Origin: Blastocatellia bacterium
GTDB taxonomy: Bacteria > Acidobacteriota > Blastocatellia > UBA7656
Length of the DNA stretch: 64,000 bases
Direction: 5' to 3'
NCBI GenBank assembly: GCA_036277095.1
Contig: DASUNP010000004.1
Location: forward strand, 115,300-179,299
The notes under the pieces are model-generated. The model did no database searches, had not been told where the DNA came from, and worked only from the letters and a program-made list of their open reading frames with translations. A program made the position numbers and the translations under genes. Below are positions 344 through 63,042 of this stretch, piece by piece (position 1 is the first letter of the stretch; the number at the start of each line of letters is the position of its first letter).

Positions 344-1204
344 TTATTCAGCTCCCAACCGCTTGCGCAAGAGCGGCTCAATTGCGGCGCGCAGCTCTTC
401 ATCATCCATCACGTATTCCATCATCGTCCTGAGATAATTAACAGGGTCGCCTATCGTCAGCCATCTGCCATTGACTACGGATTCCGATACAATGCGACCG
501 CCGCGATTGAGGTATTCGTGCATGGCGTCAGTAAGCCAAAGCTCGTTTGATTTGCCGAGGGGAATCTCTTTCAGTATTTGTATGATCTCGTGTGAGAGGA
601 GGAAGCGACCAAATAAAGCAAGATTTGATCTGGCTTCGCTGCGAGACGGTTTTTCGACAAGATCGTCCACTTCTTGAATCTCGCTCCCCTCTTTGATCTG
701 AGCAATGCCGTGGCGCTCGACAATCTCCCACGGAATCTCCTGTGTTCCGGCCACCAGCGCCCCTGTCCGCTCGTGCTTTTCAATAAGCTGACGAGTAAAC
801 GGTGATTCAGATTTGACGATATCGTCGCCGTAAGCGTAAATAAAACCCTCGTCCTTGGGTATGTGCGGTTGGGCGACAATGAGTGGCGTGCCGTTGCCAT
901 AAGCACCTTGTTGAGGCTCGAAGATCATTTCGACTCCCGCGAGCTTATCAGCAAATTCGTCCATCGCTTCATGTTGCCCGCGCGGCGGAAGATCCGTCAT
1001 GCTGTATTGGCGGCGCAAGGGCTCTGCATTCCTGCCGGTTATGATGATAATCTTCCTTACGCCAGAGTCGATGAACTCTTCAACGATGAGATGAATAGCG
1101 GGCTTGCTCATTATTGGTAGAAGCTCTTTTGGATAACCCAGCGTGACAGGCAACATTCGCGTCCCTGAGCCCGCAGCAGCTATCACACCTGTTTCAACTT
1201 TCAT
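344..1204 (-). CDS. galU: UTP--glucose-1-phosphate uridylyltransferase (UDP-glucose pyrophosphorylase)
   Basis: N-terminal sugar-nucleotidyltransferase G-rich loop GVIAAAGSGTRMLP. Length of 286 aa is typical of GalU. Confidence 0.8.
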   Translation of the reverse strand: MKVETGVIAAAGSGTRMLPVTLGYPKELLPIMSKPAIHLIVEEFIDSGVRKIIIITGRNAEPLRRQYSMTDLPPRGQHEAMDEFADKLAGVEMIFEPQQGAYGNGTPLIVAQPHIPKDEGFIYAYGDDIVKSESPFTRQLIEKHERTGALVAGTQEIPWEIVERHGIAQIKEGSEIQEVDDLVEKPSRSEARSNLALFGRFLLSHEIIQILKEIPLGKSNELWLTDAMHEYLNRGGRIVSESVVNGRWLTIGDPVNYLRTMMEYVMDDEELRAAIEPLLRKRLGAE

Positions 1205-1469
1205 CCACGACCCCCGTAATATAGATTAAAGATTGGAGCAGCGTAATTTCGCGAAGAGTAAAGATGATTCGATAAAAGAAAACCGTGGTGAACGATTTCA
1301 TACGCGACTCAATTCTACGATCACGAGAACCTGTTTGACAATGATGACTGAACAGCTTGCAGACGCGACGAACTTTGATATTTGCTTCATAAGCGAGTAA
1401 TGTACATGGCAGTAAGGCTCAATCATTTCCATCCTGTCGCCGTCTCGACCAGGGCTGGGGGGCAAAAGC

Positions 1470-2705
1470 ATGAATGATGGTGTAGCACTCGATGTGCTTG
1501 CAAAGAACCAGGATTTATTACGCGGCTCATTGGAGACTCTGGATCAAGAGGCCATAGTTAAGGCCTTTCTCTGGCTTAATGGCGAGGGGTCTTTCCCCTA
1601 TCCATCATCTATCCATTTAGACCTGACACTCAGATGCTCCGCCCGTTGCGCCCATTGCATGCAATGGGCATGGCCTGATCACGCAGAGCTCACGCTTTCC
1701 CAGCTCAAACAGCTCTTCGAAGTTTTCAGCTCGTGGGGAGTAAAAACTATAACCTTCGGTGGAGGCAACCCCCTGCTCCACGACCATTTCATTCCAGCGA
1801 TCAAGATGGCGTGTGAGGCTAAAATGGAAGTGGGCATTATTTCCGAGGGCATGGAAATGTCTAGCGAGCTGGCCAGCGCCATCTGTAAATATGGAAGGTG
1901 GATACGTTTCTCCTTAGACGGCCCGACACCTGAGATTCACGATAGCATTCGCAATGCTCCAGGATTGTTTAACCTTGTTTTATCCTGCATTGAATCTCTT
2001 CAAGCGGTTCCCAGCCCGTTACTAATCGGCCTTAATTGTGTTGTGCAAAAAAAGAATGTCAGCTCGCTGGCGGGGATGACTGAGCTTGCTGAGCGGATAG
2101 GTGTAGATACCCTACTATTCAAGATTCCTCACGGCGACGATCCCAACTCTCGTTTCTTGCCGTCCATAAATGAATGGAGAATGTTTGTTGAATGGATTCA
2201 CGCAACCGCTGATAAAAAGAGCTCCGTAAGAAACAATTTGAAAGAGCTGTCAGAATTGCTCGCTCCTGTATTTCTCGAAGAGGATGTTGTCGCCGGCAGG
2301 CCCGTAAGGGAATTCTACAAGCGAATAAATGCTCGTTGCTTTGCGCCCTTCTTCTTTCTCGTGTGCGATTCGGAAGGCAATGCTTACCCGTGCGATTATC
2401 TTCAGGCAGATACTCGCCAGTGGGGCGGTAAGTATGTGAATATTCGCAATGAATTCCGTTTGGGCAATATTCTGGAGGACAGTCAGGGAGTAATCGATAG
2501 ACTGGCGAGCATGATGCGCGAGCGAGTTCACCGTTTGCCAGGCTGCGGCTATGATGAATGCGGCTGCTGTACGCGCTTCTTCCAATTGAATGCCGCTCTC
2601 ACAAGTATCGATGATGGGCTGAAGAATCTGGCTGTTGATAGGAAGACTGTCCGCGAGCGGATCGCGCAAGTAAAGAACGAAGGCCCCGGCGCGTCGTTTT
2701 TGTAA
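1470..2705 (+). CDS. radical SAM enzyme with C-terminal SPASM domain (peptide/protein-modifying maturase family)
   Basis: CxxxCxxC cluster CSARCAHC near the N-terminus. C-terminal Cys-rich SPASM-like region: CFAPFFFLVCDSEGNAYPCDY ... LPGCGYDECGCC. GC about 48-50%, lower than neighbouring genes. Confidence 0.85.
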   Translation: MNDGVALDVLAKNQDLLRGSLETLDQEAIVKAFLWLNGEGSFPYPSSIHLDLTLRCSARCAHCMQWAWPDHAELTLSQLKQLFEVFSSWGVKTITFGGGNPLLHDHFIPAIKMACEAKMEVGIISEGMEMSSELASAICKYGRWIRFSLDGPTPEIHDSIRNAPGLFNLVLSCIESLQAVPSPLLIGLNCVVQKKNVSSLAGMTELAERIGVDTLLFKIPHGDDPNSRFLPSINEWRMFVEWIHATADKKSSVRNNLKELSELLAPVFLEEDVVAGRPVREFYKRINARCFAPFFFLVCDSEGNAYPCDYLQADTRQWGGKYVNIRNEFRLGNILEDSQGVIDRLASMMRERVHRLPGCGYDECGCCTRFFQLNAALTSIDDGLKNLAVDRKTVRERIAQVKNEGPGASFL

Positions 2706-2717
2706 TCCTTAGACGGT

Positions 2718-3704
2718 TTGAGAACTCTTATGCCTCATGTATTCATTAGCTATTCGCACGACGATGAAGACAAAGCTCGGACCGTGAAGGACTATCTAGC
2801 GGATGCCGGGATCAAAGCGTTTATCGATACCTCGAAGCTAAAGGCAGGCGACGAATGGCGCATAGAATTGCAATCCGCTTTGGATAGCGCGTTCGCGGTC
2901 ATCGTCATCTGTACAAAGGCTTCGATGGCATCGCAAGAAGTTGCGTTTGAGTGGGCTTATGCGATGGGACAAGGCACGATAATTATTCCTTTGATTTACG
3001 AGCCTGATACCCGGATTCATTCACGTTTGCAAACGCTTCAGCATCTTCAGTTTTCCGATCCGCGTCAGCGCCCGTGGGGAACGCTAACCAAATTTCTTTC
3101 AGACGCGCGCGATAATTATGAGCCGACATCGGCGTTTCTGCGGCAAGCCGGTATTTTCCGAATCGTTTACTCCCGGTCCGATTTGGGCCAGGAATACTCG
3201 ATTTCAGGCATATTGAATCAGGTTAAAGCGAGCGCTGAATTACTCGTCATCTCGCGCAGCGGAGAGGCTTGGGCTAGAGAGTTTAATCATATGCAAACCG
3301 CGCTGAACGAAAAATCTTTGCATATCAGGCTCGCCCTTGTTAACCCTGACATTCCCAGAGAGCAATGGATGATACGGTCAGATTACGCACATTCGGACAC
3401 TGGATCAACTGTAAGCAAACTGAATCAGATAAAGATTGAGCAAAGCTCTAAAGGCATTCTTCAGGTTTATTATCTGCCGAGCTCTCCATTATTCTCTTTT
3501 GTTCATTTCGAGGATCAAGACAGCAACAAATGGGGAATTCTCGAAGCGGGAGCTGGTCTGCCTTTAAACGAACGCACAATTCTGATATTGAAGTCAGGCG
3601 ATCACGAGGAAGGATTGATCCTGAAAAGAATACACAAAATATATGCCAGTGTGTTGAAAGATTTGAGTCCCGTTATCGATCTTCGCTCATTAGCAGCGGG
3701 CTAG
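2718..3704 (+). CDS. TIR-domain protein with uncharacterised C-terminal domain of about 200 aa
   Basis: N-terminus reads VFISYSHDDEDKARTVKDYLADAGIKAFIDTSKLKAGDEWRIELQSALDSAFAVIVICTKAS, the canonical start of a bacterial TIR domain. The ORF track begins at a TTG (2718). The first ATG is at 2730 (MPHVFISY), which is the likelier start. It lies 13-25 nt after the rSAM stop. GC is low, about 48%. Confidence 0.8.
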   Translation: MRTLMPHVFISYSHDDEDKARTVKDYLADAGIKAFIDTSKLKAGDEWRIELQSALDSAFAVIVICTKASMASQEVAFEWAYAMGQGTIIIPLIYEPDTRIHSRLQTLQHLQFSDPRQRPWGTLTKFLSDARDNYEPTSAFLRQAGIFRIVYSRSDLGQEYSISGILNQVKASAELLVISRSGEAWAREFNHMQTALNEKSLHIRLALVNPDIPREQWMIRSDYAHSDTGSTVSKLNQIKIEQSSKGILQVYYLPSSPLFSFVHFEDQDSNKWGILEAGAGLPLNERTILILKSGDHEEGLILKRIHKIYASVLKDLSPVIDLRSLAAG

Positions 3705-3719
3705 GCGCTATATTTTTTT

Positions 3720-4136
3720 ATGGCTGAAAAACGACCTGACCAAAATAATTCCTATGTAGTCGGCAACGCCGTTGACGAAGGTCAGCAAGAAAACCAGAGG
3801 GGCTGGTTTGTTGGGCACTTTATCCCCAACGATTGCGGATTAAGGTGTACTCCTGATGTAGAGATCAAATGGGGCATACACCCAGGTAACGAAAAAAAGC
3901 CCGCCGCCAGCTCAAATGGAGAGAGCACTACTTTAACTCTCTTGATAAGCGGTCTGTTTCTTATTAGCTTTCCCGAGCTTGGCGCTACTATTACTCTCGA
4001 ACGCGAGGGTGATTATGTCGTTTCTGCCCCCGGAGTTTTGCACGGTTGGAAAGCTATAAAGGACTCAGTAGTTTTGACAGTCCGCTGGCCCTCCGTAATA
4101 AACGACAAGGCAGATGTCAGGGACAAAGAAGCATAG
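3720..4136 (+). CDS. small hypothetical protein (138 aa), possibly a cupin-like beta-barrel
   Basis: Starts 16 nt after the TIR gene stop on the same strand. GC about 47%. Mixed charged/hydrophobic sequence with a predicted beta-rich core (TLTLLISGLFLISFPELGATITLEREGDYVVSAPGVLHGW). No confident family assignment. Confidence 0.5.
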   Translation: MAEKRPDQNNSYVVGNAVDEGQQENQRGWFVGHFIPNDCGLRCTPDVEIKWGIHPGNEKKPAASSNGESTTLTLLISGLFLISFPELGATITLEREGDYVVSAPGVLHGWKAIKDSVVLTVRWPSVINDKADVRDKEA

Positions 4137-4143
4137 CCTTGTA

Positions 4144-4593
4144 TCATCGTTTCTCGGTCTTCATCATAACGAACCCGTCCAGCGAGTCGTTGTAATAATT
4201 CTCTATTCGCTCAAGTATGAAATAACCATGCTTTTCATAAAAGCCCTGCGCGCCTTTGTCATCGACAGGAGTTTCGAGGTAGATGGCCTCCGCTCCACGA
4301 CCCCATAGCCAGGCTTCGATCTCTGCCAGCAACCGGCTGCCTACGGCCTTCCGCTGGCGATGAGGCACGACATCGATTGTGATTATATGGCCGAGCCTCT
4401 CGGCTTCCGATTTGGCAATGACAAAGCCGACGACTTCGCCACGGTCTTCGGCAATCAAAGTCCGGCTTGCTCGATTTCGCAGGTAGAATTGGAGTTCGAG
4501 ATGGGAGTATGCGATTCCGGGTTCAAAGGCCGCCTGGTCTATCTCGTATAATCTTTCAAAGTCGGCGGGTTTGTACTCGCGAATCTTAACCAT
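4144..4593 (-). CDS. GNAT family N-acetyltransferase
   Basis: Acetyl-CoA binding core of GNAT acetyltransferases, RimI-like: VVGFVIAKSE...HIITIDVVPHRQRKAVGSRLL...AEAIYLETPVDDKGAQGFYEKHGY. Confidence 0.8.
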   Translation of the reverse strand: MVKIREYKPADFERLYEIDQAAFEPGIAYSHLELQFYLRNRASRTLIAEDRGEVVGFVIAKSEAERLGHIITIDVVPHRQRKAVGSRLLAEIEAWLWGRGAEAIYLETPVDDKGAQGFYEKHGYFILERIENYYNDSLDGFVMMKTEKR

Positions 4594-4975: not shown

Positions 4976-5563
4976 CTACACAGTTAACGCTTCATGCTCA
5001 AGAGACGCCATCTCGATAAAAAGTGAATGAACGCGGTTGTCGCTTGTAAGCTCAGGGTGAAAAGTTGCGGCGAGCAAGTTGTTCTGCCTAACAAGAACCG
5101 GCTCGCCATTTATCGTTGAAAGCGTTTCGACGCCCGCGCCGATGCGCGTGATTCGCGGAGCGCGGATAAAGACTGCTTCCATCGGCCCATCCCCGAGCGA
5201 CGTGTCGACCTTTCGGATGAAGCTATCGATCTGCCGCCCGTAAGAATTCCGCTCTACGATGATGTCCATCAGCCCGAGCGACTGTTGCTCGGGGTTATGA
5301 ACTTCGCTCGCCAGCAGGATCGCGCCCGCGCAAGTGCCGAAGACAGCCTTTCCCGCACGCGCAAATTCCCTGATCGGATCGACCAAATACTCTTCGAGCA
5401 TGACCTTGAGAATGGTAGTGCTCTCGCCGCCCGGGATAATCAACCCGTCGAGCATTGCGAGTTGCTCGGCGCGGCGGACTTCAACCGGCTCGACGCCCGA
5501 GCGAGCAAGCACGCGCGCGTGCGCCGCGAAATCTCCCTGGATTGCGAGAACCCCAACCTTCAT
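4976..5563 (-). CDS. pdxT: pyridoxal 5'-phosphate synthase glutaminase subunit PdxT
   Basis: Class I glutamine amidotransferase: GLIIPGGESTT, catalytic GTCAG, C-terminal HPE. Immediately downstream of pdxS. Confidence 0.9.
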   Translation of the reverse strand: MKVGVLAIQGDFAAHARVLARSGVEPVEVRRAEQLAMLDGLIIPGGESTTILKVMLEEYLVDPIREFARAGKAVFGTCAGAILLASEVHNPEQQSLGLMDIIVERNSYGRQIDSFIRKVDTSLGDGPMEAVFIRAPRITRIGAGVETLSTINGEPVLVRQNNLLAATFHPELTSDNRVHSLFIEMASLEHEALTV

Positions 5564-5564
5564 G

Positions 5565-5670
5565 ATTTTGGATTTTAGATTTTAGATTTTGGATTGACGG
5601 AGTTGGATATAGACTTACGTCAGCAGGTTAAAGCTCTGCAATCCAAAATCCAAAATCCAAAATCCAAAAT
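5565..5670. repeat. imperfect inverted repeat built from tandem heptamers (ATTTTGG/ATTTTAG x4 ... CCAAAAT x4) with a loop of about 45 nt, in the pdxS-pdxT intergenic spacer
   Basis: Direct reading. Left arm attttggattttagattttagattttggatt (5565-5595). Right arm aatccaaaatccaaaatccaaaatccaaaat (5640-5670). The arms are reverse complements apart from two G/A differences. Confidence 0.7.
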
Positions 5671-5674
5671 CGAT

Positions 5675-6565
5675 TTACCAGCCTCTCGTCTGTAGCAATT
5701 CGCTTTCGGCCATCTTCGCGACATCAAGCCCACGCATCGCCTCGCCAAGCTCTTCGCTGGCTTCGAGAATCGCTTTCGGGTCACGGAAGTGAGTCGTCGC
5801 TTTCACGATAGCCCGCGCGCGAACTGCGGGGTCCGTAGATTTGAAAATGCCTGAGCCGACGAATACCGATTCGGCGCCAAGCTGCATGCAGAGCGCGGCG
5901 TCGGCGGGCGTAGCCACGCCGCCCGCTGCAAAGTTAGGCACGGGTAACCGCCCGTCGCGCGCGACCATTCGCACTATCTCGTAGGGAGCGCCGAGATTCT
6001 TGGCTTCGGCCATCAACTCTTCCTGCCCGAGAATAGTGAGGCGCTTGATCTCGTTATGAATTCGCCTCAGATGCCGGACCGCTTCGACGATATTACCCGA
6101 CCCGGCTTCGCCTTTGGTGCGCATCATTGCCGCGCCTTCTCCGATTCGGCGCAAAGCTTCTCCGAGGTTACGCGCCCCGCAGACGAAAGGCACTTTGAAA
6201 GCGTGCTTATCGATGTGATGTTCTTCGTCGGCGGGCGTCAGCACTTCGCTTTCATCTATGAAATCTACGCCGAGAGCCTCAAGCACCTGTGCCTCGACCA
6301 GGTGGCCTATGCGGACTTTCGCCATGACAGGAATTGTGACTGCGGCCATGATCTCGCGAATCTTTTTCGGCGAGGCCATGCGCGCGACGCCGCCTTCTGC
6401 ACGGATGTCTGCGGGCACGCGCTCAAGCGCCATCACCGCAACCGCGCCCGCCTCTTCGGCTATCCTTGCCTGCTCGGCGTCGGTCACGTCCATTATCACT
6501 CCGCCTTTCAGCATCTCTGCCAGGCCTGTCTTCAAGCGAATTGAATTGTCAGTCATCTCTTTCAC
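5675..6565 (-). CDS. pdxS: pyridoxal 5'-phosphate synthase lyase subunit PdxS
   Basis: Full-length match to the PdxS/SNZ family (GGVIMDV..., ...[15 protein letters not shown]...GEAGSGN...). Confidence 0.95.
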
Positions 6566-6567
6566 TC

Positions 6568-7479
6568 CTACGACAGAAGAATCTCGCCGCGCCCCGTTAT
6601 CACAACTCCGCCTCCGACGCGGATCGCGGTTACTTCCTTCGTGCTGGTATCTGTGTCTACTTCGATGTGAAGCAGGCTGGGCCGCTTCATCTCAAATCCT
6701 TGCTCGCTGATGATCTTTGTCGTGGCCGATGGCTCCACCATCCCATGCCTGACCATGTAAAAACCGAGAGGCCCGTTAGCCGACCCCGTCGCAGCATCTT
6801 CGAGTACTCCTGCCGCTGGCGCGAAGACTCGACAGTGAGCCGCGCTCGTGGGCTCGACGGTTTCGCGAGTGAACACCAGTACTGTCGCGGCTCCCATCTC
6901 GCGGCTGATAGCTTCTAACTTATTCGCGTCGACTCTGATTCTCTGCACGGCGTCGAGCGACGCGGCGGAGGCTATCAATACGGTTATGCCGTTGTAGATC
7001 GCCTCTGCCGGAAGCTCCGCCAAATCGCCCGTGTCGAGCGAGAGCGCCTGGGCGAGCCTCGCCCTGTCAGAGAAAGTCCCTTTTATCTGAGGCAGGGGCT
7101 GCGTCATCGTCGTGTGTCCCGCGCGGTCGCTCTCTGTATTCACGGTTACGCGAATCGGGCCGACTCCTGTTTCAAGCACCACCGTTGTCTCGCCGCCGGT
7201 CCACGCCTTCATGCGGTCTGCGACTATGACGTGGCCCGTGCCTACGCAGGGGTGTCCGGCAAAGGGGAGCTCCTCTGCGGGCGTGAATATCCTCACGCGG
7301 TAGTCGCCACCCTCTTCAGGCGGTAAAAGGAAAGTGGTTTCGGAATAATTCATCTCGCGCGCAATATTCTGCATCGTTGAAGTGTCAAGCCCCTCCCCGT
7401 CGATGAAGACCGCGAGCTGGTTTCCGCCGAAGCGCTGCTCAGTGAAAACATCTGCGATGACAAAGCTTCTGTTCCTCAT
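6568..7479 (-). CDS. PhzF family isomerase (phenazine biosynthesis protein PhzF-like)
   Basis: PhzF/YddE signature: [14 protein letters not shown]...[11 protein letters not shown]...[19 protein letters not shown]. Its start overlaps the stop of the upstream aminotransferase by 4 nt. Confidence 0.85.
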
Positions 7480-8687
7480 ATCAACCTCTTCTTCAGGATT
7501 CTTCCGATCCTGGAAACGCCTTCACGGATCATGTCCGGCGGGCGGTTCGAGAAATTCAACCTGATGAAGTTCTCCTTCGGCTCGCTGGCGAAAAACGGAG
7601 CGCCGGGGACGAATGAGACTTTGTCGGCTAACGCCTCCTCGAAAAGGTCCTGCCCGCTTATCGAAGGCGGCAGCTCCACCCACACAAACAACCCGCCTTC
7701 CGGCTGTGTCGGGCGACACTCGGCAGGGAACTCCTTCGCGATGGCGTCGAGCATCGTCTCGCACCGCGCGCCATACTCGCGCCTTAGCTCTGCGATATGC
7801 CCGTCATAATCGAACTCGGCCAGCAATCGCGCCGCCGCACGCTGTTCGACTGTCGAGGTGTGGAGGTCGGAAGCCTGCTTCACGATGACCATCGCCTGCA
7901 TTAGCTCAGAAGAACTGACGGCCCACCCCAATCTCATGCCGGGGCTTATCGTCTTTGAGAAGGTGCTGAGATAGATGACCAGCCCATCACGGTCTAAGGC
8001 GGCCAGCGGCGGTCGCGCCTCGCCCCTGTAACGAAGCTCGCCATATGGGTCGTCTTCGAGAATGGGGACCTGGTGTCGCCTGGAGAGCTCGATCAGTTGA
8101 TGCCTGCGAGCGGTGGAGAGCGACGTCCCTTTCGGGTTATGAAACTCGCTTACGATATAGATAAACTTAGGATTAGAATTGCCAAGCGCCATTTCCACCT
8201 GATCGACGTTGATCCCTTCGTCGTCGCTGTCGACTGCTATGAACGACGCCTCGTAGCTGGTGAATGTCTGTAGCGCAGCCAGGTAGCAAGGGTTCTCTAC
8301 AATGACTGTGTCGCCCGGCTCAAGAAAAATCCTGGCGACGAGGTCTATGCCCTGTTGCGACCCGCTCGTCATCAACACGCGGTCCGGGTGCGCGTCGATC
8401 CCTTTCTGCTTCATCCGGTTGGAAATCCATTCTCGAAGAGGCCGCCACCCTTCCGTAGTGCTGTATTGCAATGACTCCGGCCCTTCGTCCGCAAAGACCG
8501 CCGCGTGAGCCCGCGCCACCGCTTCGACCGGAAAAAGCTCAGGCGCGGGCATACCCCCCGCGAAAGAGATGATGTCGGGTCGCTCGCTCACCTTCAGAAT
8601 CTCGCGTATAGCAGAAACGTTCATCTTCTTCATGCGGCGCGCAAAACGAAAATTGCGCCGCTCTGTCTTTGCCGTCATAGTTGCCAT
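7476..8687 (-). CDS. PLP-dependent aminotransferase (class I/II, MocR-C-domain-like) without HTH
   Basis: The PLP-lysine region STFSKTISPGMRLGW is typical of the fold-type I aminotransferase family. Length 403 aa with no N-terminal wHTH. Confidence 0.8.
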   Translation of the reverse strand: MATMTAKTERRNFRFARRMKKMNVSAIREILKVSERPDIISFAGGMPAPELFPVEAVARAHAAVFADEGPESLQYSTTEGWRPLREWISNRMKQKGIDAHPDRVLMTSGSQQGIDLVARIFLEPGDTVIVENPCYLAALQTFTSYEASFIAVDSDDEGINVDQVEMALGNSNPKFIYIVSEFHNPKGTSLSTARRHQLIELSRRHQVPILEDDPYGELRYRGEARPPLAALDRDGLVIYLSTFSKTISPGMRLGWAVSSSELMQAMVIVKQASDLHTSTVEQRAAARLLAEFDYDGHIAELRREYGARCETMLDAIAKEFPAECRPTQPEGGLFVWVELPPSISGQDLFEEALADKVSFVPGAPFFASEPKENFIRLNFSNRPPDMIREGVSRIGRILKKRLI

Positions 8688-12618: not shown

Positions 12619-13349
12619 TCCCTTGATCTTATCTCTTCAAGCATTCGGTAGTCTGTAAGGTCGTTTCTGAGCGGCGTGATCGATACGAGCCCCTGGCGCA
12701 GCGCCTCGTAATCCGTGCCTTCCTCCTCGTTCCACGTCAGGGCCTCCTCGCCGATCCAGTAATACTTCCTCTGGCGGGGGTCCGTGCCTTCGATGATCGT
12801 CGGCTTGATTATTTTTGTCCCCTGGCGTGTCACACGCACGCCTCGAACGGGGCCGGGCGGCAGGTTGACGTTCAACAGCGTGCCGCGAGGCAGCCCGTTG
12901 TCGAGCACTCTGCGAGCAAGGTTGGCGGCGAACTCTGAGGCGTGAGTGAACTCAAAGTCAACGCGCTGCACAAGGCTGACGGCAATGCCGGGAAGCCCGT
13001 AAATCGACGCTTCGAGCGCGCCGGCAACTGTCCCGGAATAGCTTACGTCGTCGCCCAGGTTCCCGCCCTTGTTGACGCCCGAAAGCACTATGTCGGGCGG
13101 GTTCTCTTTTAGAATTTTGTTCATCGCGAGCGTGACGCAATCCGTTGGCGTCCCGTCGACAGAGTAGTGCGCGTCATCTATCTTTTCGATGCGAAGCGGG
13201 CGTGTCAAAGTCAGCGAGTGAGACGCGGCGCTCATTTCGTGAGCGGGGGCGACGACGATCACGTCCCCGAGCGTGCCGAGGGCTTCGGCCAATGCGATGA
13301 TGCCTGCGGAATGTATGCCGTCGTCGTTTGTTACCAATATTCTCGGCAT
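12585..13349 (-). CDS. surE: 5'/3'-nucleotidase SurE
   Basis: MPRILVTNDDGIHSAGI is the conserved SurE N-terminus. The start was trimmed from the track ORF (13475) to the ATG at 13349, giving 255 aa. Confidence 0.85.
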   Translation of the reverse strand: MPRILVTNDDGIHSAGIIALAEALGTLGDVIVVAPAHEMSAASHSLTLTRPLRIEKIDDAHYSVDGTPTDCVTLAMNKILKENPPDIVLSGVNKGGNLGDDVSYSGTVAGALEASIYGLPGIAVSLVQRVDFEFTHASEFAANLARRVLDNGLPRGTLLNVNLPPGPVRGVRVTRQGTKIIKPTIIEGTDPRQRKYYWIGEEALTWNEEEGTDYEALRQGLVSITPLRNDLTDYRMLEEIRSRDWDIAFETQPR

Positions 13350-13433
13350 AAAAAAGAAGGCCCGGGAGAGAGAACAAACGACCGAGGCCCACAATCTGAA
13401 TCTATTGCAAATGAATAAAGAGATTGAATTTAA

Positions 13434-13507
13434 TCGGGACGACTGGATTTGAACCAGCGACCTCTTCCACCCCAAGGAAGCGCGCTACCAGGCTGCGCCA
13501 CGTCCCG
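13434..13507 (-). tRNA. tRNA-Pro (anticodon GGG)
   Basis: Reverse complement reads CGGGACGTGGCGCAGCCTGGTAGCGCGCTTCCTTGGGGTGGAAGAGGTCGCTGGTTCAAATCCAGTCGTCCCGA. It has a 7-bp acceptor stem, a D-loop AGCCTGGTAG and a T-loop GGTTCAAATCC. The anticodon loop is CUUGGGGU, so the anticodon is GGG. CCA is not encoded. Confidence 0.8.
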
Positions 13508-13536
13508 TTCTGCTAACCAACAATGAGCCGTTTTGC

Positions 13537-14013
13537 TCAACTTTTGATGCTAGCATTCGAGTTCAGCAATGTCAATAAATCCTCAAGATCGCGCTTGATG
13601 ACCCTCAGCGCGCGGCGGGCTTGGGGTGTGATGGTCTGCTCCGAGACTGTTTCAATCGGCTCGGAGATAGGGACATCGTCGGCCTCATCCGGCAATGCGG
13701 GAAGCTCTGCCGGTGACGAGTCGGGTGCTACATTTTTCCCTCGCGTTGAACTCCCACGCATCTCGTCCATCAGCTTCTTTTTCGCGCCTGCTATCGTGAA
13801 TTTCTCTTCATACAGGAGGTCGCGTATGCGCAAAACCATCTCGACATCTTTCCGGCGGTAAACGCGCTGGCCCGCCCGATTCTTCTGCGGAGCAAGCATG
13901 GGGAATTCCGTCTCCCAGTACCGGAGGACGTGCGGCTGCACCTTTATCAGCTCGCAGACTTCTCCTATCCTGAAGAATAGTTTCTCTGGGATTCTTGACG
14001 AGACTTCCATCAT
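13537..14013 (-). CDS. MerR-family transcriptional regulator
   Basis: N-terminal MerR HTH: FRIGEVCELIKVQPHVLRYWETEFPMLAPQKNRAGQRVYRRKDVEMVLRIRDLL. Confidence 0.75.
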   Translation of the reverse strand: MMEVSSRIPEKLFFRIGEVCELIKVQPHVLRYWETEFPMLAPQKNRAGQRVYRRKDVEMVLRIRDLLYEEKFTIAGAKKKLMDEMRGSSTRGKNVAPDSSPAELPALPDEADDVPISEPIETVSEQTITPQARRALRVIKRDLEDLLTLLNSNASIKS

Positions 14014-14503: not shown

Positions 14504-16156
14504 CTAGATGCCGCTCGCTGCAGTCGACTCTTCAAGCGCAGGGCTTGGAAGGCTGGATTCAAACTTGACCGACACGCGAAATATCCCTCGGAACCACCGC
14601 GCCTTCCGGTCTGCCGACCATAACTCAAGCTCGGCTCCCGAGTCGCTCTCAAGATGCATTGTCACGGTCGCGCCTTTAATCTCGCACCGCACGTCGCCGA
14701 CCAGTTGCTGGTGCGAGCGGTCCAGCCCGTCGGCAATCTGTAGAATCGCGGCGAGCTTCAGGACGTTCGCGCGGTGGCTCCGCTCGACGCTCAAAAAGTC
14801 TTCGTGCTCGCGACGCATCCGCGCGTCGACGGCTTTTTTCGGCATCGAGCCTCTGTGATACCTGACGACCGCAGCCATGATTGCGATCTCGTTACCATTA
14901 AAGCCCGGCATCTCGGAATTCTTTATCAAGTAAAGGCTGTGACGGTGATGGTTGTTAGGCGCGATGTGGTAGCCGATGTCGTGAAGCAGCGAGGCGTATT
15001 CGAGCAAGTTGCGTTCCTGGTCGCCCATCCCGTGGAGGTCCTGCGTGTCGTCGAATATTCTGGTCGCCAGCCTCGCCACGTGATGCGAGTGCGTCGCGTC
15101 GTAATCGTAACGCCGCGCGACTGACAGAACCGACCTCTTGCGGATGTCGGGAGGCCCGCTCGTATCAATCAAGGGAGCAGAATTGATTCCCGCCTCTATC
15201 GCGTGGGGCTCCGCTGCGAGCTTGCGCAGGTGATTGAGTATAACTCCTTCTCTCAACGACCAGTCACAGCTCGTAATCTCTTTCGCGCCCAGCGCCGACA
15301 TTATTGTTTCAAGCAGCAAGCCCCCGGCTACAACGATGTCTGCGCGATCTTTTTCAATCCCTGGCACGCGCCCACGCTCTCGCAAGGTCATGCTTGAAAG
15401 ACGCCTGTTAAGGCGCTTGATCTGAGAGAGCGTGACGGTCTGGCTGAACGGCTCGTAGTCGGAATGGTCCTCAATGTGCGCGGCCGCCTCGGCCTGTACA
15501 ATCGCGCTTACCATGTTGAGGACCGTTCCTGAAGTTCCCATCACAAAATCGAAGCCAAGCCGCTTGATCTCCCACACGACTCGCGTCAAATCGGCACGGA
15601 TAGTGGCCGTCAAACGATCGCGCTCTTCATGTGAGATGGGATCCGTAGTTATGAACTTCTCTGAGAGGCGGACGGCTCCGAGCCGTATCGACAGCAATAA
15701 CTCCGGGCCCGCTCCGCTCGTTACGATGAACTCAGTCGACCCGCCGCCGATGTCTATGATTAGCGCGCGGCGACCGTTAAAGTCCGTTACCTCCGAGACT
15801 GCTAGCGCGATCAAGCGAGCCTCTTCGACGCCCGGCAGCAGATGAACGTGGAGCCCGACTTCCTGTCGAACAGTCTCTATAAACTCGTCTGCGTTGTGAG
15901 ATTCGCGAACGGCGGCCGTCGCTGTCGCTATGATCAAATCGACGCGATTTGCTTCCGCCATCTGCTTGAAACGGCGCAGCGTCGTGATCGCGCGCTCGAT
16001 GGTTTGCTTCGACAGCTTGTGCGCCCGAAGGGTACCGGACCCGAGCCGCACCATCTCTTTTTCTCGGTCGATTATTTCGAGGTGTTGCCCCGGCTCCGCG
16101 CGAACTATTACCAGGTGTATCGAATTCGAGCCAATGTCTATTGCAGCAAGCTTCAT
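14504..16156 (-). CDS. Ppx/GppA family exopolyphosphatase / guanosine pentaphosphate phosphohydrolase with C-terminal HD domain
   Basis: N-terminal actin-like ATPase motifs AAIDIGSNSIHLVIV and IIDIGGGSTEF. C-terminal HD region (HHRHSLYLI). Confidence 0.85.
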   Translation of the reverse strand: MKLAAIDIGSNSIHLVIVRAEPGQHLEIIDREKEMVRLGSGTLRAHKLSKQTIERAITTLRRFKQMAEANRVDLIIATATAAVRESHNADEFIETVRQEVGLHVHLLPGVEEARLIALAVSEVTDFNGRRALIIDIGGGSTEFIVTSGAGPELLLSIRLGAVRLSEKFITTDPISHEERDRLTATIRADLTRVVWEIKRLGFDFVMGTSGTVLNMVSAIVQAEAAAHIEDHSDYEPFSQTVTLSQIKRLNRRLSSMTLRERGRVPGIEKDRADIVVAGGLLLETIMSALGAKEITSCDWSLREGVILNHLRKLAAEPHAIEAGINSAPLIDTSGPPDIRKRSVLSVARRYDYDATHSHHVARLATRIFDDTQDLHGMGDQERNLLEYASLLHDIGYHIAPNNHHRHSLYLIKNSEMPGFNGNEIAIMAAVVRYHRGSMPKKAVDARMRREHEDFLSVERSHRANVLKLAAILQIADGLDRSHQQLVGDVRCEIKGATVTMHLESDSGAELELWSADRKARWFRGIFRVSVKFESSLPSPALEESTAASGI

Positions 16157-49661: not shown

Positions 49662-50831
49662 TTATCTGCCTTGTTTGAGGAATGATTTGATGAGCTCGTT
49701 GGCGATAACCATCTTCTGCACTTCGGACGTGCCCGCTCCGATCGTGCCGAGCCGCGCGTCACGATAGAAACGCTCGACAGGGTACTCGTGAATATAACCG
49801 TAGCCGCCGAAGACCTGGACCGCTTCATACGAGACGCGAACAGCGGCCTCCGTAGCCCAGAGCTTTGCGATGGCGGCCTCCATCATCGCCGATCTGCCCT
49901 GCTGTTTTAGCCACGCCACGCGGTAGACCAGCAGCCGCGCCGCTTCGACGGCGATCTTCATCTCGACAAGCTTTCGCTGTATGGCCTGGAACTCGGCTAT
50001 GGGCCGGCCAAACTGGTGGCGCTCCTTCGCGTACCTGGTTGAAACCTCTAGCATGAATTCCATGCCGCCAATTATGGGAGCGATCATGCAGCTGCGCTCC
50101 CACTCAAGCGTCTCTTTGCCTACGGCGATGAAGCCGAGGTCGGCGGGGCCTAGCAGGTTTTCGGCAGGCACTTCGCAATTGTCAAACGCGATCTCGGAAG
50201 TGACCGAAGTCCGATTGCCCATCTTCACAAGGTCCTTGCCTGACGAGAAGCCCGGGAAGTCGCGCTCGACTATGAATGTCGAGATGCCGCGATTGCCCGC
50301 GCCTTTGGCGGTCGAGGCGAATACGATGAAGATATTTGCGATCGGCGCGTTCGTGATAAACATCTTCGAGCCGTTGAGTATCCAGCGGTCGCCGCGCCGC
50401 TCAGCCGTCGTCTTCAACCCCGCTGCGTCAGAGCCTGACCCCGGCTCTGTCAATCCGAACGCGCCGACCCATTCGCCCGAACAGAGCTTTGGCAGGTATT
50501 TTTGCTTCTGCTCTGAAGTGCCTAGAAGCCAGATCGGGAGCCCGCAGAGAATCGTGTGCGCGCCCCAGGCCAGTGTCGTCCCGGCGTCTACGCCTGCGGC
50601 GCCCATAGCCTCCATCGCTATGCAGGTGGCGAGAGGCGATGCTTCGCTGCCGCCGTATTTTTCGGGGAAGGGCAGGCCGAGCAATCCCATCCCCGCGACT
50701 TCGCGCCAGTTCTCCCAACTGAACTCTCCGCGCGCATCAAGCTCTTCGGCGCGAGGCGCGAGCCGTTCTTTAGAGAAGCGATAAACAGCTTCCTTGAAAT
50801 CGAGATACTCTTGTGGGATTGAGAAGTCCAT
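49662..50831 (-). CDS. acyl-CoA dehydrogenase
   Basis: ACAD motifs GAFGLTEPGSGSDAAG, YASTAKGAGNRGISTF and C-terminal QVFGGYGY. Start trimmed to MDFSIPQEY. Confidence 0.85.
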   Translation of the reverse strand: MDFSIPQEYLDFKEAVYRFSKERLAPRAEELDARGEFSWENWREVAGMGLLGLPFPEKYGGSEASPLATCIAMEAMGAAGVDAGTTLAWGAHTILCGLPIWLLGTSEQKQKYLPKLCSGEWVGAFGLTEPGSGSDAAGLKTTAERRGDRWILNGSKMFITNAPIANIFIVFASTAKGAGNRGISTFIVERDFPGFSSGKDLVKMGNRTSVTSEIAFDNCEVPAENLLGPADLGFIAVGKETLEWERSCMIAPIIGGMEFMLEVSTRYAKERHQFGRPIAEFQAIQRKLVEMKIAVEAARLLVYRVAWLKQQGRSAMMEAAIAKLWATEAAVRVSYEAVQVFGGYGYIHEYPVERFYRDARLGTIGAGTSEVQKMVIANELIKSFLKQGR

Positions 50832-50880
50832 CCGGAGCGGCAAGATTAGCACAAACCGCAGAGGCGTTCCAAATACCAGG

Positions 50881-50910
50881 AAGATTATTAAACTGAAGAT
50901 TATTAAACTG
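50881..50910. repeat. perfect tandem direct repeat, 2 x 15 bp (AAGATTATTAAACTG)
   Basis: aagattattaaactg aagattattaaactg. It overlaps the stop of the 137-aa ORF and lies about 30-50 nt upstream of the acyl-CoA dehydrogenase start (minus strand). AT-rich in a GC-rich context. Confidence 0.7.
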
Positions 50911-51316
50911 TGGTATTGCCCGTGTACTCTGGGTCCAGTTCAGTGGCGGGCGCTCCGAGGTGGTCAGCCGCGCGCAAGACGAGACTGTTATCAACGTAGA
51001 AAGATAAACGAGCGGAGCGGTTGTGTTTGACCGGCGCTCCGCACACGCGCAGGTTATAACCCGCGAGCTCGAGCGTGATCTTATAACCCTGGCAATGCGG
51101 GACCATGATCTTTTTGAAATCCAGGACGCCCGAGCCCTGGCGCAGCGCATCTTCAATGTTGCTCTTGACGACGCGGGCAAAGCTCCAGAGCGCGACCGCT
51201 GTGTTGTACTCGTTTTCAGCCATGCGGGCTTCGCGCATCGCAAGCATCCGCTTGTAGACGTGCAGATCGAGCGCGATCAGGAATACTGCCGCAAGAGTTA
51301 TCAGAATAATTGACAT
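50903..51316 (-). CDS. hypothetical protein with N-terminal TM anchor (137 aa)
   Basis: MSIILITLAAVFLIALDLHV is a single N-terminal TM helix. No recognisable domain. Confidence 0.4.
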   Translation of the reverse strand: MSIILITLAAVFLIALDLHVYKRMLAMREARMAENEYNTAVALWSFARVVKSNIEDALRQGSGVLDFKKIMVPHCQGYKITLELAGYNLRVCGAPVKHNRSARLSFYVDNSLVLRAADHLGAPATELDPEYTGNTTV

Positions 51317-60274: not shown

Positions 60275-61597
60275 TTGCGAATCTCCATGAAGAATCTTAA
60301 AGAAGAAGCCGAACAAATCTTCTTTGCTACATTAAATGCCCTGGATCTAAAGCTGCTTGTTAATAAAAATCTCAAGCTTGAGGACAACACTCTTCATCTG
60401 AAAGATGAAGAGATAAAGTTGAAAGATTATAGAGATCTTTTTTTAATCGGCTTTGGGAAAGCGAGCCTCACCATAGCGGCTGCGGTAGAAGGCCTGCTAG
60501 GCGAGAGAATAACGAGATCGCTTCTCGTATCAGATGCGCCGCACGAGTTAAAGCTAAAATCTGAAATCATAATCGCGGGCCATCCCTTGCCCGATCAAAA
60601 TAGTTTGCTTGCGGGAAAAAGAATCCTTGAGCTGGTTCAAGCAGCACCGCCGGATTCTCTGATAATCTTCATCGTAACGGGCGGCGGCTCCGCGCTCGTC
60701 GAACAGCCGATTTCACACGACGTGACGCTTGAAGACTTGAGAGAGCTGAACCGGTTGCTGGTCAACAGCGGCGCAACGATCCGCGAGATCAACGTTGTTC
60801 GAAAACACCTGTCACAGATCAAAGGCGGGCGGCTCGGTTACCTCGCTCGCAATAACTCAAGCATCAGGCTCTTCCTGTCTGACGTGAATCCGGGTGACTT
60901 GCGATCTATCGCTTCAAACCCTCTACTTCCCGATGAAGTCGAACTCGATGATTTCTTTGACATTCTTGAGCGATACAAGCTGGCTGATAGACTACCTCGC
61001 TCAATACTTGAGATCATCCGGAAAGGTGAGATTGGCGAGCTTCCAAGAGAGTGGGCCTACGAGAAAAAAAGCATAAACCTATTGCTGGCAGACAATCACG
61101 ACGCGATCAGGCTGGCAGCGGAGATCGCTCGGCGGAAGGGCTTTCACGTTGAAACTGATTTGCGATTCTCCGAGGGCGATTATAAGGCGGTGAGCATGGA
61201 ATTGATTAAGACACTGCTGGCGCTGAAAGAGCGTTTCCCCGACGAGCCTGTCTGCCTGGTCTCGGGCGGCGAAGTCTCTTGCCCTGTCAAGGGCGATGGA
61301 GTTGGCGGCCGCAACCAGGAATTCGTTCTTTATACGGCTATCGAGCTATCAAGAATTGACGACTTTGAGGCGTGCGCGCTCTCTTGCGGGACAGATGGCG
61401 TAGACGGCAACAGCCCTGCGACTGGGGCAGTTGCCGATGCTGAGACAATAAGGCTGGCCCTGCGACTAGGTTTAGACCCGGTCGTTTTCCTCGAACGAAA
61501 CGATTCACACTCTTTTTTTGAGCTTGTTGGGGGGGCTGTCTACACTGGACCGACGGGAAATAATGTTCGCGACCTCAGGCTCCTCATCGCTTCGTGA
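60275..61597 (+). CDS. glycerate 2-kinase (MOFRL family, GckA/TtuD-like)
   Basis: DUF4147/MOFRL architecture: FLIGFGKAS ... IIFIVTGGGSALVEQP ... CLVSGGEVSCPVKGDGVGGRNQEFVL. Confidence 0.8.
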   Translation: MRISMKNLKEEAEQIFFATLNALDLKLLVNKNLKLEDNTLHLKDEEIKLKDYRDLFLIGFGKASLTIAAAVEGLLGERITRSLLVSDAPHELKLKSEIIIAGHPLPDQNSLLAGKRILELVQAAPPDSLIIFIVTGGGSALVEQPISHDVTLEDLRELNRLLVNSGATIREINVVRKHLSQIKGGRLGYLARNNSSIRLFLSDVNPGDLRSIASNPLLPDEVELDDFFDILERYKLADRLPRSILEIIRKGEIGELPREWAYEKKSINLLLADNHDAIRLAAEIARRKGFHVETDLRFSEGDYKAVSMELIKTLLALKERFPDEPVCLVSGGEVSCPVKGDGVGGRNQEFVLYTAIELSRIDDFEACALSCGTDGVDGNSPATGAVADAETIRLALRLGLDPVVFLERNDSHSFFELVGGAVYTGPTGNNVRDLRLLIAS

Positions 61598-61638: not shown

Positions 61639-63042
61639 ATGGAAAACGTTGTGCTGATAGTCGACGACGAGCCGGCCGCGCGATACGGGATGAGGCGGGC
61701 GCTCGAAAAGGAAGGGCATAGGATATTTGAAGCCGACAGCGTCGCTTCTGCCGAACAGGTAGTCGATAGCCAATCGCCAAGCGTCATACTTCTGGACGTA
61801 AAGTTAGCCTCAGAATCGGGGCTTGATTACCTGCCCGAGTTGGTCGCGCGAAAGGAGGCGCCGGTCGTCATCATAGTCACAGCGCATGGCTCGGAGCGGC
61901 TCGCCGTTGAGGCGATTAAGAAGGGCGCTTTTGATTACCTCGCCAAGCCTTTTGACGTCGATGAGCTGCGGATACTTGTAAGAAACGCGCTCGGCGCTTA
62001 CAGGCTCAGGACTGAGAACGAGCAGCTTCGTAATGAGCTGTCGGGAACCGAGACCTATGGTCAGTTGATAGGCTCATCACCGGCCATGTCGAGGGTCTAT
62101 TCACTCATCGAAAAGATTTCGCAGACGGACGTGAGCGTGCTGATAATGGGCGAATCAGGCACGGGCAAAGAGATGGTCGCCAGGGAGATTCACGCGCGCA
62201 GCAGGGCGGGAGCTGGCCCTTTTGTTGCGCTCAATTGCGCCGCGATGCCGGAGGAATTGATCGAGTCCGAGCTATTCGGTCACGAGAAAGGGGCCTTTAC
62301 CGGCGCGACGGGGAAGAGAATTGGCAAGTTTGAGGCAGCCAACAAAGGGACTCTCTTTTTGGATGAGATCGGCGATATGAGCCTCTCGACACAGGCAAAG
62401 GTTCTGCGTGTGATTGAGGAAAAGAAGTTCCAGCGGCTGGGTAGCAATGAGCTTCTTTCGACCGACGTTCGGATTATTAGCGCGACCAACAAGAATCTGG
62501 AAAAAGAGGTCGAGCAGCAACGATTCAGGGAAGATTTATTCTACCGTCTAGCGGTCGTCTCCCTGACCCTTCCGCCACTCAGGGAACGAAAGACCGACAT
62601 ACCGGCGCTTGCCCAGTCATTCTGCGACAGATATTCGGTGGCTTATAGAACAGGCCCTTTAAGGATCTCAAAACCAGCCCTTAAAGTAATGCTTGAGCAT
62701 GGCTGGCCAGGCAACGTTAGACAACTTCGTAATGTAATTGAGCGATCTGTAGTTCTTACTGAAGGTGAAGAAATTACATTAGATGTATTGCCTCAAGAAT
62801 TAACGGCTAAACAATTCCAGGAAGAGGTGATAGCAGATCTCTCAGGCGGGATAAATATACCCCTCTCGTTAAACTTTAAGGATGCAAAAAGAGAGTTTGA
62901 GCGAAAATACATCGAACGGTGTTTAGAAAGCACATCCGGGAACATCACGCAGGCGGCATCCATGCTTGGTATGCACCGTCAAAGCCTTCAGCATAAGATT
63001 AAAGAGCTTGGGCTGACCAAACGCTTTATTTCGACAGACTAA
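61639..63042 (+). CDS. sigma-54-dependent two-component response regulator (NtrC/AtoC family bEBP)
   Basis: Receiver domain (VLIVDDEP, D in LLDVKL). AAA+ sigma-54 activation domain with Walker A GESGTGKE, the GAFTGA motif and an arginine finger. C-terminal Fis-type HTH. Confidence 0.9.
   Translation: MENVVLIVDDEPAARYGMRRALEKEGHRIFEADSVASAEQVVDSQSPSVILLDVKLASESGLDYLPELVARKEAPVVIIVTAHGSERLAVEAIKKGAFDYLAKPFDVDELRILVRNALGAYRLRTENEQLRNELSGTETYGQLIGSSPAMSRVYSLIEKISQTDVSVLIMGESGTGKEMVAREIHARSRAGAGPFVALNCAAMPEELIESELFGHEKGAFTGATGKRIGKFEAANKGTLFLDEIGDMSLSTQAKVLRVIEEKKFQRLGSNELLSTDVRIISATNKNLEKEVEQQRFREDLFYRLAVVSLTLPPLRERKTDIPALAQSFCDRYSVAYRTGPLRISKPALKVMLEHGWPGNVRQLRNVIERSVVLTEGEEITLDVLPQELTAKQFQEEVIADLSGGINIPLSLNFKDAKREFERKYIERCLESTSGNITQAASMLGMHRQSLQHKIKELGLTKRFISTD

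Follow-up and report, generated by a model that had tools for sequence, protein, structure and literature searches.

What does a radical S-adenosylmethionine (SAM) enzyme do beside a TIR protein and a small cupin? The question is raised by three co-directional + strand open reading frames (ORFs), genes 1 to 3, at positions 1470-4136 of a 64,000-nt stretch (the window) of a 275,572-bp contig from a Blastocatellia (Acidobacteriota) metagenome-assembled genome (MAG). A first-pass annotation of this DNA had reported three tightly spaced co-directional genes at this place, and the ORFs exist as it described them. We suggest, with a likelihood a little short of even, that the cassette is a conflict (anti-phage) system of three genes that has so far escaped description and whose logic resembles that of Pycsar, CBASS and Thoeris; that it is a conflict or defence system with a sensor-effector protein is probable. 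All functional statements are based on sequence, structure prediction and gene context. What has direct support is the conservation of the trio, the swapping of its effector modules, the intact catalytic motifs of these effectors, the horizontal spread and the fold of the C-terminal domain (CTD) of gene 2, which is phospholipase D (PLD)-like and lacks the HKD motif.

We have gathered loci from GTDB genomes, JGI metagenomes and a contig index, and scanned all their ORFs with hidden Markov models (HMMs) of the radical-SAM, CTD and cupin families. Linkage was counted over distinct loci that had a family radical-SAM gene (at least 340 bits) and enough flank. A CTD protein adjoined the radical-SAM gene in 23/23 of these loci, and the cupin was adjoining or fused in 19 of the 20 that could be assessed, the exception (L033) having a NudE-type Nudix hydrolase in the cupin slot. 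The neighbourhood analysis that the first-pass annotation had called for thus revealed a trio that recurs in at least five phyla, with Acidobacteriota, Actinomycetota, Gammaproteobacteria, Fibrobacterota and Bacteroidota among the host groups. The hosts include Blastocatellia, Terriglobia, Polymorphospora, Micromonospora, an uncultured actinomycete, Candidatus Thiodiazotropha, Chitinispirillaceae and Prolixibacteraceae. The association also takes the form of gene fusions. In L005, L021 and L036, metallophosphoesterase-CTD(-CTD)-cupin proteins carry the cupin at the C-terminus of the CTD protein, and in a Prolixibacteraceae MAG a single 792-aa ORF (L010, 5866-8244, + strand) joins a Pycsar-type TIR, one CTD and the radical-SAM enzyme, and the cupin gene (5420-5776) lies immediately upstream; this last fusion is known from one assembly. 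The pairing of a radical-SAM enzyme with a TIR protein, as it had been perceived at first, therefore stood as part of a conserved cassette, but the constant partners are the CTD and the cupin, with TIR being one of at least five interchangeable modules.

These CTD-fused modules comprise TIR_2, a CAP12/Pycsar-type TIR at either the N- or the C-terminus (L010, P0217 and P0250), DUF4062, a calcineurin-like metallophosphoesterase, whose variant carries two CTD copies, and a two-transmembrane (2TM) module, a ~70-aa segment with two strongly hydrophobic helices. The effector type does not track the radical-SAM phylogeny, in which L012 (TIR type) and L015 (metallophosphoesterase type) are mutual nearest relatives (64% identity); L015 is also the nearest radical-SAM relative of the TIR-type L053. 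The DxH/GD/GNHD/GH motifs were intact in 6/6 metallophosphoesterase variants, a module most similar to the DS-8 (84 bits) and DS-9 (53 bits) metallophosphatases, both matches falling far below the full-length cut-offs. Judged by their motifs, the effector modules look active. A constant domain on which TIR, phosphoesterase and 2TM modules take each other's place is the pattern of effector proteins in signalling conflict systems (Kaur et al. 2020, PMC7159879).

In the window, the effector is the TIR module. The first-pass annotation had gene 2 open with a TIR domain followed by a non-TIR domain of ~200 aa, and both parts were confirmed, the first by the TIR_2 profile (PF13676; residues 8-114, 83.4 bits against a cut-off of 28, E=2e-23) and the second by ~190 residues with no Pfam match. 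The TIR domain aligns to Brucella TcpB/BtpA and to AbTIR, with E70 opposite the Glu of "WPAREL", which we take to be the catalytic residue in TcpB/BtpA. The motif S.EV.FE..YA is kept in at least 90% of 19 TIR-CTD proteins, and so is E70. By fold and Glu, the module has the sequence hallmarks of a TIR-domain NADase and is predicted to be one. Only four full-length relatives of the whole TIR protein were found.

The CTD is very rare, with 41 proteins recovered among 1.84 billion cluster representatives in an exhaustive phmmer search, and sequence searches of Pfam and the PDB returned no match to it. Structure prediction of this domain, another check proposed at the outset, gave a confident PLD-like model from a 39-sequence segment alignment (predicted local distance difference test, pLDDT, 94.5; predicted template-modelling score, pTM, 0.90). 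Its nearest structural matches are non-catalytic, namely the TrmB effector-binding domain and FAM83; further neighbours are the PLD-family restriction enzymes SauUSI, NgoAVII and BfiI, together with Zucchini and PLD3. The HxK...D (HKD) motif is absent from the CTD. Membership of the phospholipase D/HKD nuclease family was rejected on the missing HxK(x)4D catalytic motif. The domain has instead a conserved set of its own, made of G10, R18, R45 (invariant), S46, W50, D87, D92, G111, P119, F126, E141, G143 and R151. It is present once or twice per protein, both copies retaining this set, and PLD domains work as dimers or as tandem pseudo-dimers. From these features we take the domain to be a non-catalytic module for binding, whose pocket would suit an anionic ligand. 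The TrmB effector-binding domain and the FAM83 DUF1669 domain share the non-catalytic PLD-like fold, but their sequence identity to the CTD is only 7-15%, they differ from it in the R/S/W/D/D/E/G/R conserved set, and they are joined to DNA-binding or kinase-scaffold parts, whereas the CTD is fused to toxic effector modules. The CTD is a previously undescribed PLD-like domain.

The restriction enzymes among these structural neighbours bring up a scheme close to restriction-modification (R-M), in which the radical-SAM enzyme and the cupin would mark host nucleic acid, and the PLD-like domain would read the modification state and trigger the effector. Some radical-SAM enzymes do modify RNA or DNA, and several of the loci adjoin R-M genes. 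We consider this scheme very improbable. The nearest fold matches are the non-nuclease TrmB and FAM83 rather than SauUSI, NgoAVII or BfiI, the cassette has no conserved domain for DNA binding and no conserved helicase domain, variants with a Nudix or a GHMP kinase indicate small molecules, and the 2TM effectors would be membrane-bound, an odd site for a reader of nucleic acid.

We have then examined the enzyme of the cassette. Gene 1 belongs to the radical-SAM superfamily by its PF04055 match (74.9 bits against a cut-off of 29.5, E=1e-20). The canonical CxxxCxxC noticed in it on first reading was borne out, with C56, C60 and C63 invariant in 41/41 family members. In the 41-member alignment, C290, C308, C364 and C367 are invariant C-terminal cysteines as well, and C299, C330, C366 and C371 are conserved at 51-78%. 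As the mark of a SPASM domain we have taken the pattern CX9-15GX4C ... CX2CX5CX3C ... C above the Pfam gathering score, with twitch as the truncated one-cluster version. The first half of the Cys region of gene 1 fits the SPASM/twitch pattern (C290...G-x3-C308), the second half is an atypical CxCCxxxC, and the Pfam SPASM profile scored 17.3 bits, below its cut-off of 21.5, over profile positions 1-42 of 67. Since this match is sub-threshold and partial while four C-terminal Cys are invariant, we call the protein SPASM/twitch-like: the initial SPASM call agreed with the first half and the four invariant Cys, but not with the Pfam threshold. The Cys pattern makes at least one auxiliary Fe-S cluster likely; a second one is uncertain. 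The family is discrete and very rare, with ~72 proteins at E<=1e-55 and the next matches at 1e-11. NCBIfam equivalogs for peptide maturases, heme/NirJ, MoaA and viperin gave 40-68 bits against cut-offs of 180-850, and the family profile matched PDB entries in the core alone, these being SkfB, BlsE, prokaryotic viperin-like proteins, MoaA and viperin.

One annotation within this family needs comment. In Micromonospora sp. DT47 (L008 7542-9164, P0066) the radical-SAM protein is annotated with 540 aa and an N-terminal PF02128 match; the annotated start is probably too far upstream, because only residues ~148-525 match the family.

With such a Fe-S domain, the enzyme could act on a protein rather than on a small molecule: it would modify the cupin or the CTD protein, by a crosslink, an epimerisation or a formylglycine-like change (compare the HXS or anSME-type maturases), and so arm the effector with no diffusible signal. 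The SPASM/twitch-like domain itself speaks for such a maturase, the best NCBIfam and PDB similarities include SkfB, mycofactocin MftC, PqqE and AlbA, and strict co-occurrence together with fusions to both partners would suit an enzyme-substrate pair. There is also a precedent for a radical-SAM-matured defence effector in HXS, a validated defence system with an HxS-repeat effector matured by HxsB/C (PMC13128918). Several observations nevertheless make protein maturation rather improbable here. The similarities do not extend beyond the generic radical-SAM core and lie far below the family cut-offs, and the N-terminal extension of ~45 aa is too short for a recognition element of the kind used on peptides that are made by ribosomes and modified after translation (RiPPs). 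A search for a RiPP precursor found no small ORF conserved upstream across 16 loci, downstream or remote precursors not being excluded by it; the sole upstream ORF similarity among the loci compared was a galU coding overlap with L001. Finally, the Nudix that replaces the cupin and the GHMP kinase of one variant favour small-molecule chemistry. Assignment of the cassette as a RiPP or peptide-maturase cluster was rejected on the missing upstream precursor ORF, the short N-terminal extension and maturase equivalog scores far below cut-off.

Gene 3 itself had no match in Pfam. Its family, with 577 homologues, includes some members that match Cupin_2 (PF07883) or Cupin_3 (PF05899), and weak matches (E 0.007-0.03) link the family profile to the cupins TM1112 (E=0.007) and 3d82; E48, H54 and H108 are invariant in the family. 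By these similarities gene 3 is probably a member of the cupin superfamily, whose marks are a double-stranded beta-helix fold, two cupin motifs and His/Glu metal ligands, and it would serve as a co-enzyme or co-sensor of the system. Many gene 3 homologues are named "signal peptidase I" in NCBI/UniRef (P0091, P0142, P0150, P0177, P0190 and others), a name that finds no support here and that is likely to be a propagated misannotation. A cupin of the same family also occurs outside radical-SAM cassettes, in Amycolatopsis cynarae (L055 3993-6998), on an integrase/FtsK/WhiB element, where it overlaps the end of a gene for a 532-aa helix-turn-helix protein. This partner was considered as a CTD or Nudix protein and dismissed: the HMM found no CTD in it, and a Nudix-like motif seen by eye had no Pfam or PDB support.

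The similarity of the radical-SAM core to viperins raises another possibility, a system with two arms, in which the radical-SAM enzyme and the cupin would produce an antiviral nucleotide analogue, or some other product with direct toxicity, while the CTD would sense a phage cue (nucleic acid or protein) rather than this product and trigger the variable effector as the second arm. The core matches PADLOC pVip at 64 bits, NCBIfam viperin at 59 bits and viperins in the PDB at E 1e-11 to 1e-14; BlsE and MoaA, which act on nucleosides or nucleotides, score similarly; and SauUSI, NgoAVII, Zucchini and PLD3, which bind nucleic acid, are among the fold relatives of the CTD. A parallel exists in Ophion, a validated defence system of a non-viperin radical-SAM enzyme with PHP and PRTase proteins that is proposed to act through nucleotides (bioRxiv 10.1101/2025.09.30.679545). 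The viperin cut-off was, however, missed widely (59 against 180 bits), and the CTD lacks the HKD nuclease motif. Viperins have a C-terminal NTP-binding extension and no auxiliary-cluster Cys array. The radical-SAM gene never swaps and the N-terminal module does, which fits a synthase and its receptor better than two effectors. We give two separate arms only a small chance.

Since the N-terminal module is swapped whereas the CTD and the enzyme pair stay constant, the cassette compares best, in function, with a signal synthase and its receptor-effector. In the mechanism that we favour, the radical-SAM enzyme and the cupin would make or process a small anionic metabolite, which would probably be derived from a nucleotide or a sugar nucleotide; a chemistry of this kind is hinted at by the Nudix substitution, the GHMP-kinase variant and the resemblance of the CTD to TrmB. 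The catalytically dead PLD-like CTD would bind the metabolite, in this cassette as a homodimer and in some other variants in the form of a tandem pseudo-dimer, and ligand occupancy would switch the N-terminal effector. In the window, the TIR module with its intact catalytic Glu would then deplete NAD+ and abort the infection. That the CTD senses, as its ligand, what the radical-SAM enzyme and the cupin produce is a tentative proposal, which we hold to be less probable than the defence role itself.

The inverse wiring would be equally compatible with the data: a constitutive ligand would hold the effector off until infection stops its supply. An inverse signalling scheme is reportedly used by Panoptes, and wiring of this type would need no fast inducible radical-SAM reaction. 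One possibility is a "guard" arrangement, where constant SAM-dependent synthesis of the ligand would keep a TIR, 2TM or phosphoesterase effector off, and where phage interference with the supply of SAM, Fe-S clusters or reductant (for instance by SAM-degrading enzymes), or with the ligand itself, might release it.

Several points weigh against a signalling defence system. We know of no radical-SAM enzyme that makes an immune messenger; these enzymes work slowly and are sensitive to oxygen, properties ill suited to an inducible signal, and those with SPASM/twitch domains typically act as maturases of peptides or proteins. Nucleic acids, too, are bound by PLD-fold domains, such as those of SauUSI, NgoAVII, Zucchini and PLD3, and small-molecule binding by the CTD is a prediction. 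The full-length model of gene 2, built from four full-length homologues, reached a pLDDT of 43 and offered no usable arrangement of TIR and CTD. With regard to genomic context, defence or mobile neighbours occurred in about 5-6 of 11 contexts, an anecdotal simple count, and the remaining loci, the window and L001 (GalU-like, GNAT, pdxS/T) among them, have the cassette in housekeeping surroundings. Searches for the radical-SAM gene on plasmids, for the CTD on phages and for the radical-SAM family in IMG/VR viral contigs returned no match.

The composition and distribution of the cassette are those of accessory genes. Its GC content is 48.4% against 56.2% for the window; it falls in the lowest 1% of equal-length windows (mean 56.4%, sd 2.2%), and gene 2 has the lowest GC at third codon positions (GC3) among the 48 long ORFs of the window. 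The GC drop remarked upon in the first-pass annotation is therefore real on windowed calculation. Across hosts, the cassette lies below its flanks in 14/15 backgrounds (-0.7 to -20 points), with 40% against 60% GC in Thiodiazotropha. Given this deficit and the patchy spread over phyla, the horizontal acquisition suspected at first has probably taken place. L001 is a syntenic relative with the same GalU-like/GNAT position and 53-59% protein identity, and the acquisition would be old in this lineage, since the position of the cassette is shared with it.

Other contexts contain defence or mobile-element genes. L053 carries an integrase, two TIR-TPR genes and a type I R-M system in which a further TIR gene is embedded; L051 carries integrase fragments, an NB-ARC/TPR STAND protein and a methyltransferase with RE_MjaI; L050 has an AAA_16/nSTAND3 and WD40 pair, L060 a transposase and ThiF with Prok-E2 (E1/E2), and L056 has Mrr. 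PADLOC found type I R-M components among 132 flanking ORFs (E down to 1e-169), a tally that is inflated by redundant R-M models and was used qualitatively only; the 50 other ORFs of the window, taken as a control, gave only generic matches. Regarding a location in defence islands, R-M, STAND or integrase neighbours were thus present at several loci, but none was present in this window.

The housekeeping surroundings suggest yet another reading, a non-defence metabolic cassette, that is, a small pathway that would make or salvage a modified nucleoside, sugar or cofactor, its TIR-like and phosphoesterase domains being nucleotide-processing enzymes with no role in conflict. The GalU-like, GNAT and pdxS/T neighbours in the window and in L001 agree with it, as do NTP_transferase genes near the cassette in three loci, the Nudix and GHMP-kinase partners of variants, and the lack of copies on phages, plasmids and viral contigs. 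On the other hand, a TIR N-glycosidase, a phosphodiesterase and a bare TM pair cannot share one biosynthetic step, yet they interchange on the CTD beside radical-SAM genes that are closely related; the cassette is extremely rare, occurs patchily and shows a consistent GC deficit; and R-M, STAND and integrase genes are neighbours in several loci. On balance, a purely metabolic role has a low probability.

We have compared the cassette with known systems. As the first-pass annotation held, no named system accounts for it: PADLOC gave only generic, sub-threshold pVip and TIR matches and none for the CTD or the cupin, the NCBIfam matches were equally generic and sub-threshold, and full-text literature searches found no paper describing a radical-SAM, PLD-like and cupin architecture. 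With Pycsar and CBASS it shares a compact operon, a dedicated enzyme and a constant sensing domain with interchangeable toxic modules (TIR, 2TM, phosphoesterase), and a CTD sensor in one or two copies recalls CARF/SAVED. It differs from them in that the enzyme is a radical-SAM protein with a cupin and the sensor is PLD-like, not SAVED, STING, CARF or a domain binding cyclic nucleoside monophosphates (cNMP). Assignment to CBASS or Pycsar was discarded, as PADLOC and Pfam showed neither a CD-NTase nor a pyrimidine cyclase, be it in the cassette or in any of the 23 related ones. A TIR domain, NAD+-derived chemistry and a small operon are reminiscent of Thoeris. The TIR scored ~23 bits with ThsB models in PADLOC and 26 bits, against a cut-off of 220, with ThcB4 of type III Thoeris; it can be replaced by non-TIR modules and is therefore an effector, unlike the signal-generating TIR of Thoeris. 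Thoeris was rejected on these weak ThsB-type matches and on the lack of a ThsA-like (SIR2 or Macro-SLOG) gene.

Likewise, the cassette resembles pVip in having a radical-SAM enzyme of moderate core similarity in a defence-like setting, but is set apart by its auxiliary-cluster Cys domain and its constant coupling to the CTD and cupin genes; pVip was rejected on an NCBIfam viperin score of 59.1 against 180 bits, a match limited to core residues 48-242 and the presence of the C-terminal Cys array. HXS and Ophion are akin to it as defence systems with non-viperin radical-SAM enzymes, and their existence makes out of date the earlier statement that the radical-SAM enzymes of defence are only viperin-like. 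Neither fits, with HxsC at 40 against 267.9 bits and no adjacent HxS-repeat, PHP or PRTase gene. The metallophosphoesterase module of the CTD-CTD variants comes nearest to DS-8 and DS-9, validated anti-phage systems in which metallophosphatase catalytic residues are essential for defence and, in DS-8, the module is N-terminal (PMC13092281). DS-8 pairs it with a NACHT NTPase and DS-9 with a HAD phosphatase, whereas here it is combined with PLD-like domains, a radical-SAM enzyme and a cupin. Overall, the cassette would combine the signalling or abortive-infection logic of known systems with new components.

In all the signalling immune systems known to us, the signal is made by a nucleotidyltransferase, a cyclase, Cas10 or a TIR domain. 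If the cassette is a defence system, it would add an enzyme class (radical SAM with a cupin) and a receptor fold (an inactive PLD-like domain) to signalling immunity. That it represents the first immune messenger made by a radical-SAM enzyme and a cupin and read by a new receptor class of catalytically dead PLD-like dimers is somewhat unlikely; were it true, the signal chemistry would have no relation to oligonucleotides, whether cyclic or linear, or to the ADPR isomers that TIR domains make, and the biochemical problem would become which small molecule the pair makes and how a dead PLD dimer reads it. The natural swaps among TIR, Pycsar-TIR, DUF4062, metallophosphoesterase and 2TM would in that case offer a view of how one sensor drives different killing modules. 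The source of the family is phyla of soil and sediment that have been little studied, and homology tools such as PADLOC and NCBIfam do not see it.

Table 1. Positions of the cassette features and of the adjoining genes in the window.
Feature	Position	Strand	Remarks
Presumed promoter region	1205..1469		Between divergent GalU-like gene and radical-SAM gene; 265 nt, 45.7% GC
Gene 1, radical-SAM enzyme, SPASM/twitch-like C-terminal Fe-S domain	1470..2705	+	411 aa; PF04055 E=1e-20
CxxxCxxC (C56, C60, C63) of gene 1	1635-1658	+	Radical-SAM cluster motif
Auxiliary-cluster Cys region of gene 1 (C290 to C367)	2337-2570	+	
Gene 2 TIR domain, predicted NADase effector module	2730..3122	+	TIR_2 E=2e-23
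Candidate catalytic Glu E70 of gene 2	2937-2939	+	Alignment to TcpB/BtpA, AbTIR
Gene 2 CTD, PLD-like without HKD motif	3123..3704	+	Predicted ligand sensor, dimerisation module
Gene 3, small cupin protein	3720..4136	+	138 aa; E48, H54, H108 invariant
NTP_transferase (GalU-like) gene	344-1204	-	Upstream neighbour of cassette
GNAT gene	4144-4593	-	Downstream neighbour of cassette

The layout of the cassette is given in Table 1. The gene 2 ORF on the + strand begins at 2718 or 2730 and ends at 3704, giving 328 or 324 aa by choice of start; we have placed the start at the ATG at 2730, as homologues begin MPH.FISYS and the NCBI protein has 324 aa. With this start the intergenic spacers are 24 nt (genes 1-2) and 15 nt (genes 2-3), so that the tight spacing given earlier stands while its values, 13-25 and 16 nt, are refined. 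The position between opposite-strand galU and GNAT genes agrees with the Pfam matches of these neighbours to NTP_transferase and GNAT. The promoter role of the upstream region is presumed: a sigma-70 consensus scan of its + strand showed no convincing site, and the promoter and terminator scan was uninformative, its counts being no higher than in shuffled sequence.

The gathered loci include several variants. In L033, the Nudix gene of the exceptional cassette (7361-7900, + strand) lies between the metallophosphoesterase-CTD-CTD gene and the radical-SAM gene, its NudE match of 54.8 bits being below the cut-off. In Terriglobia-type cassettes (TIR-CTD-CTD), the cupin gene is followed by one for a DUF4202 protein that weakly resembles HD domains (L002 11455-12150), and DUF4202 is fused to the cupin in L060 (12593-13678); DUF4202 may be a fourth component of the Terriglobia-type cassettes. 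A distant variant (L057 2-6433 and L058 3-2618) has, in this order, a partial radical-SAM-like gene, a GHMP kinase, a Cupin_2 protein that is not orthologous in sequence to gene 3, a DUF4062-CTD protein and a 902-aa superfamily 1 (SF1) helicase; the substrate of its GHMP kinase is ambiguous between mevalonate kinase-like and galactokinase-like, both matches being below cut-off. In L059 (9899-12185) the cassette looks broken, with a radical-SAM gene split in two and a TIR call of 112 aa that covers a fragment, through either gene decay or indel errors of long-read assembly.

A GalU-like NTP_transferase gene lies beside the cassette in L001 (6900-7766) as it does in the window, and the unrelated L053 has a GMPPB-like NTP_transferase and a phosphomannomutase gene beside it (12929-13933 and 14555-15961). 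This proximity could be a coincidence, an insertion hot spot or a hint of a sugar-nucleotide-derived ligand. Within the window, the ORFs at 50770-51243 (-), 60275-61597 (+) and 61639-63042 (+) have GC3 values of 0.51-0.58 against a mean of 0.66 and may have been acquired; the cassette and the GalU-like gene are likewise among the low-GC3 ORFs. PADLOC on the window ORFs at 4979-63992 gave "RtcR_PspF2--CARF_AAA_HTH" (4e-117), likely a sigma-54-type AAA activator, and LmuB/SMC-like models (1.5e-38), both probably generic. The only Rfam match at the gathering threshold in the whole window is one tRNA gene (13434-13507, - strand).

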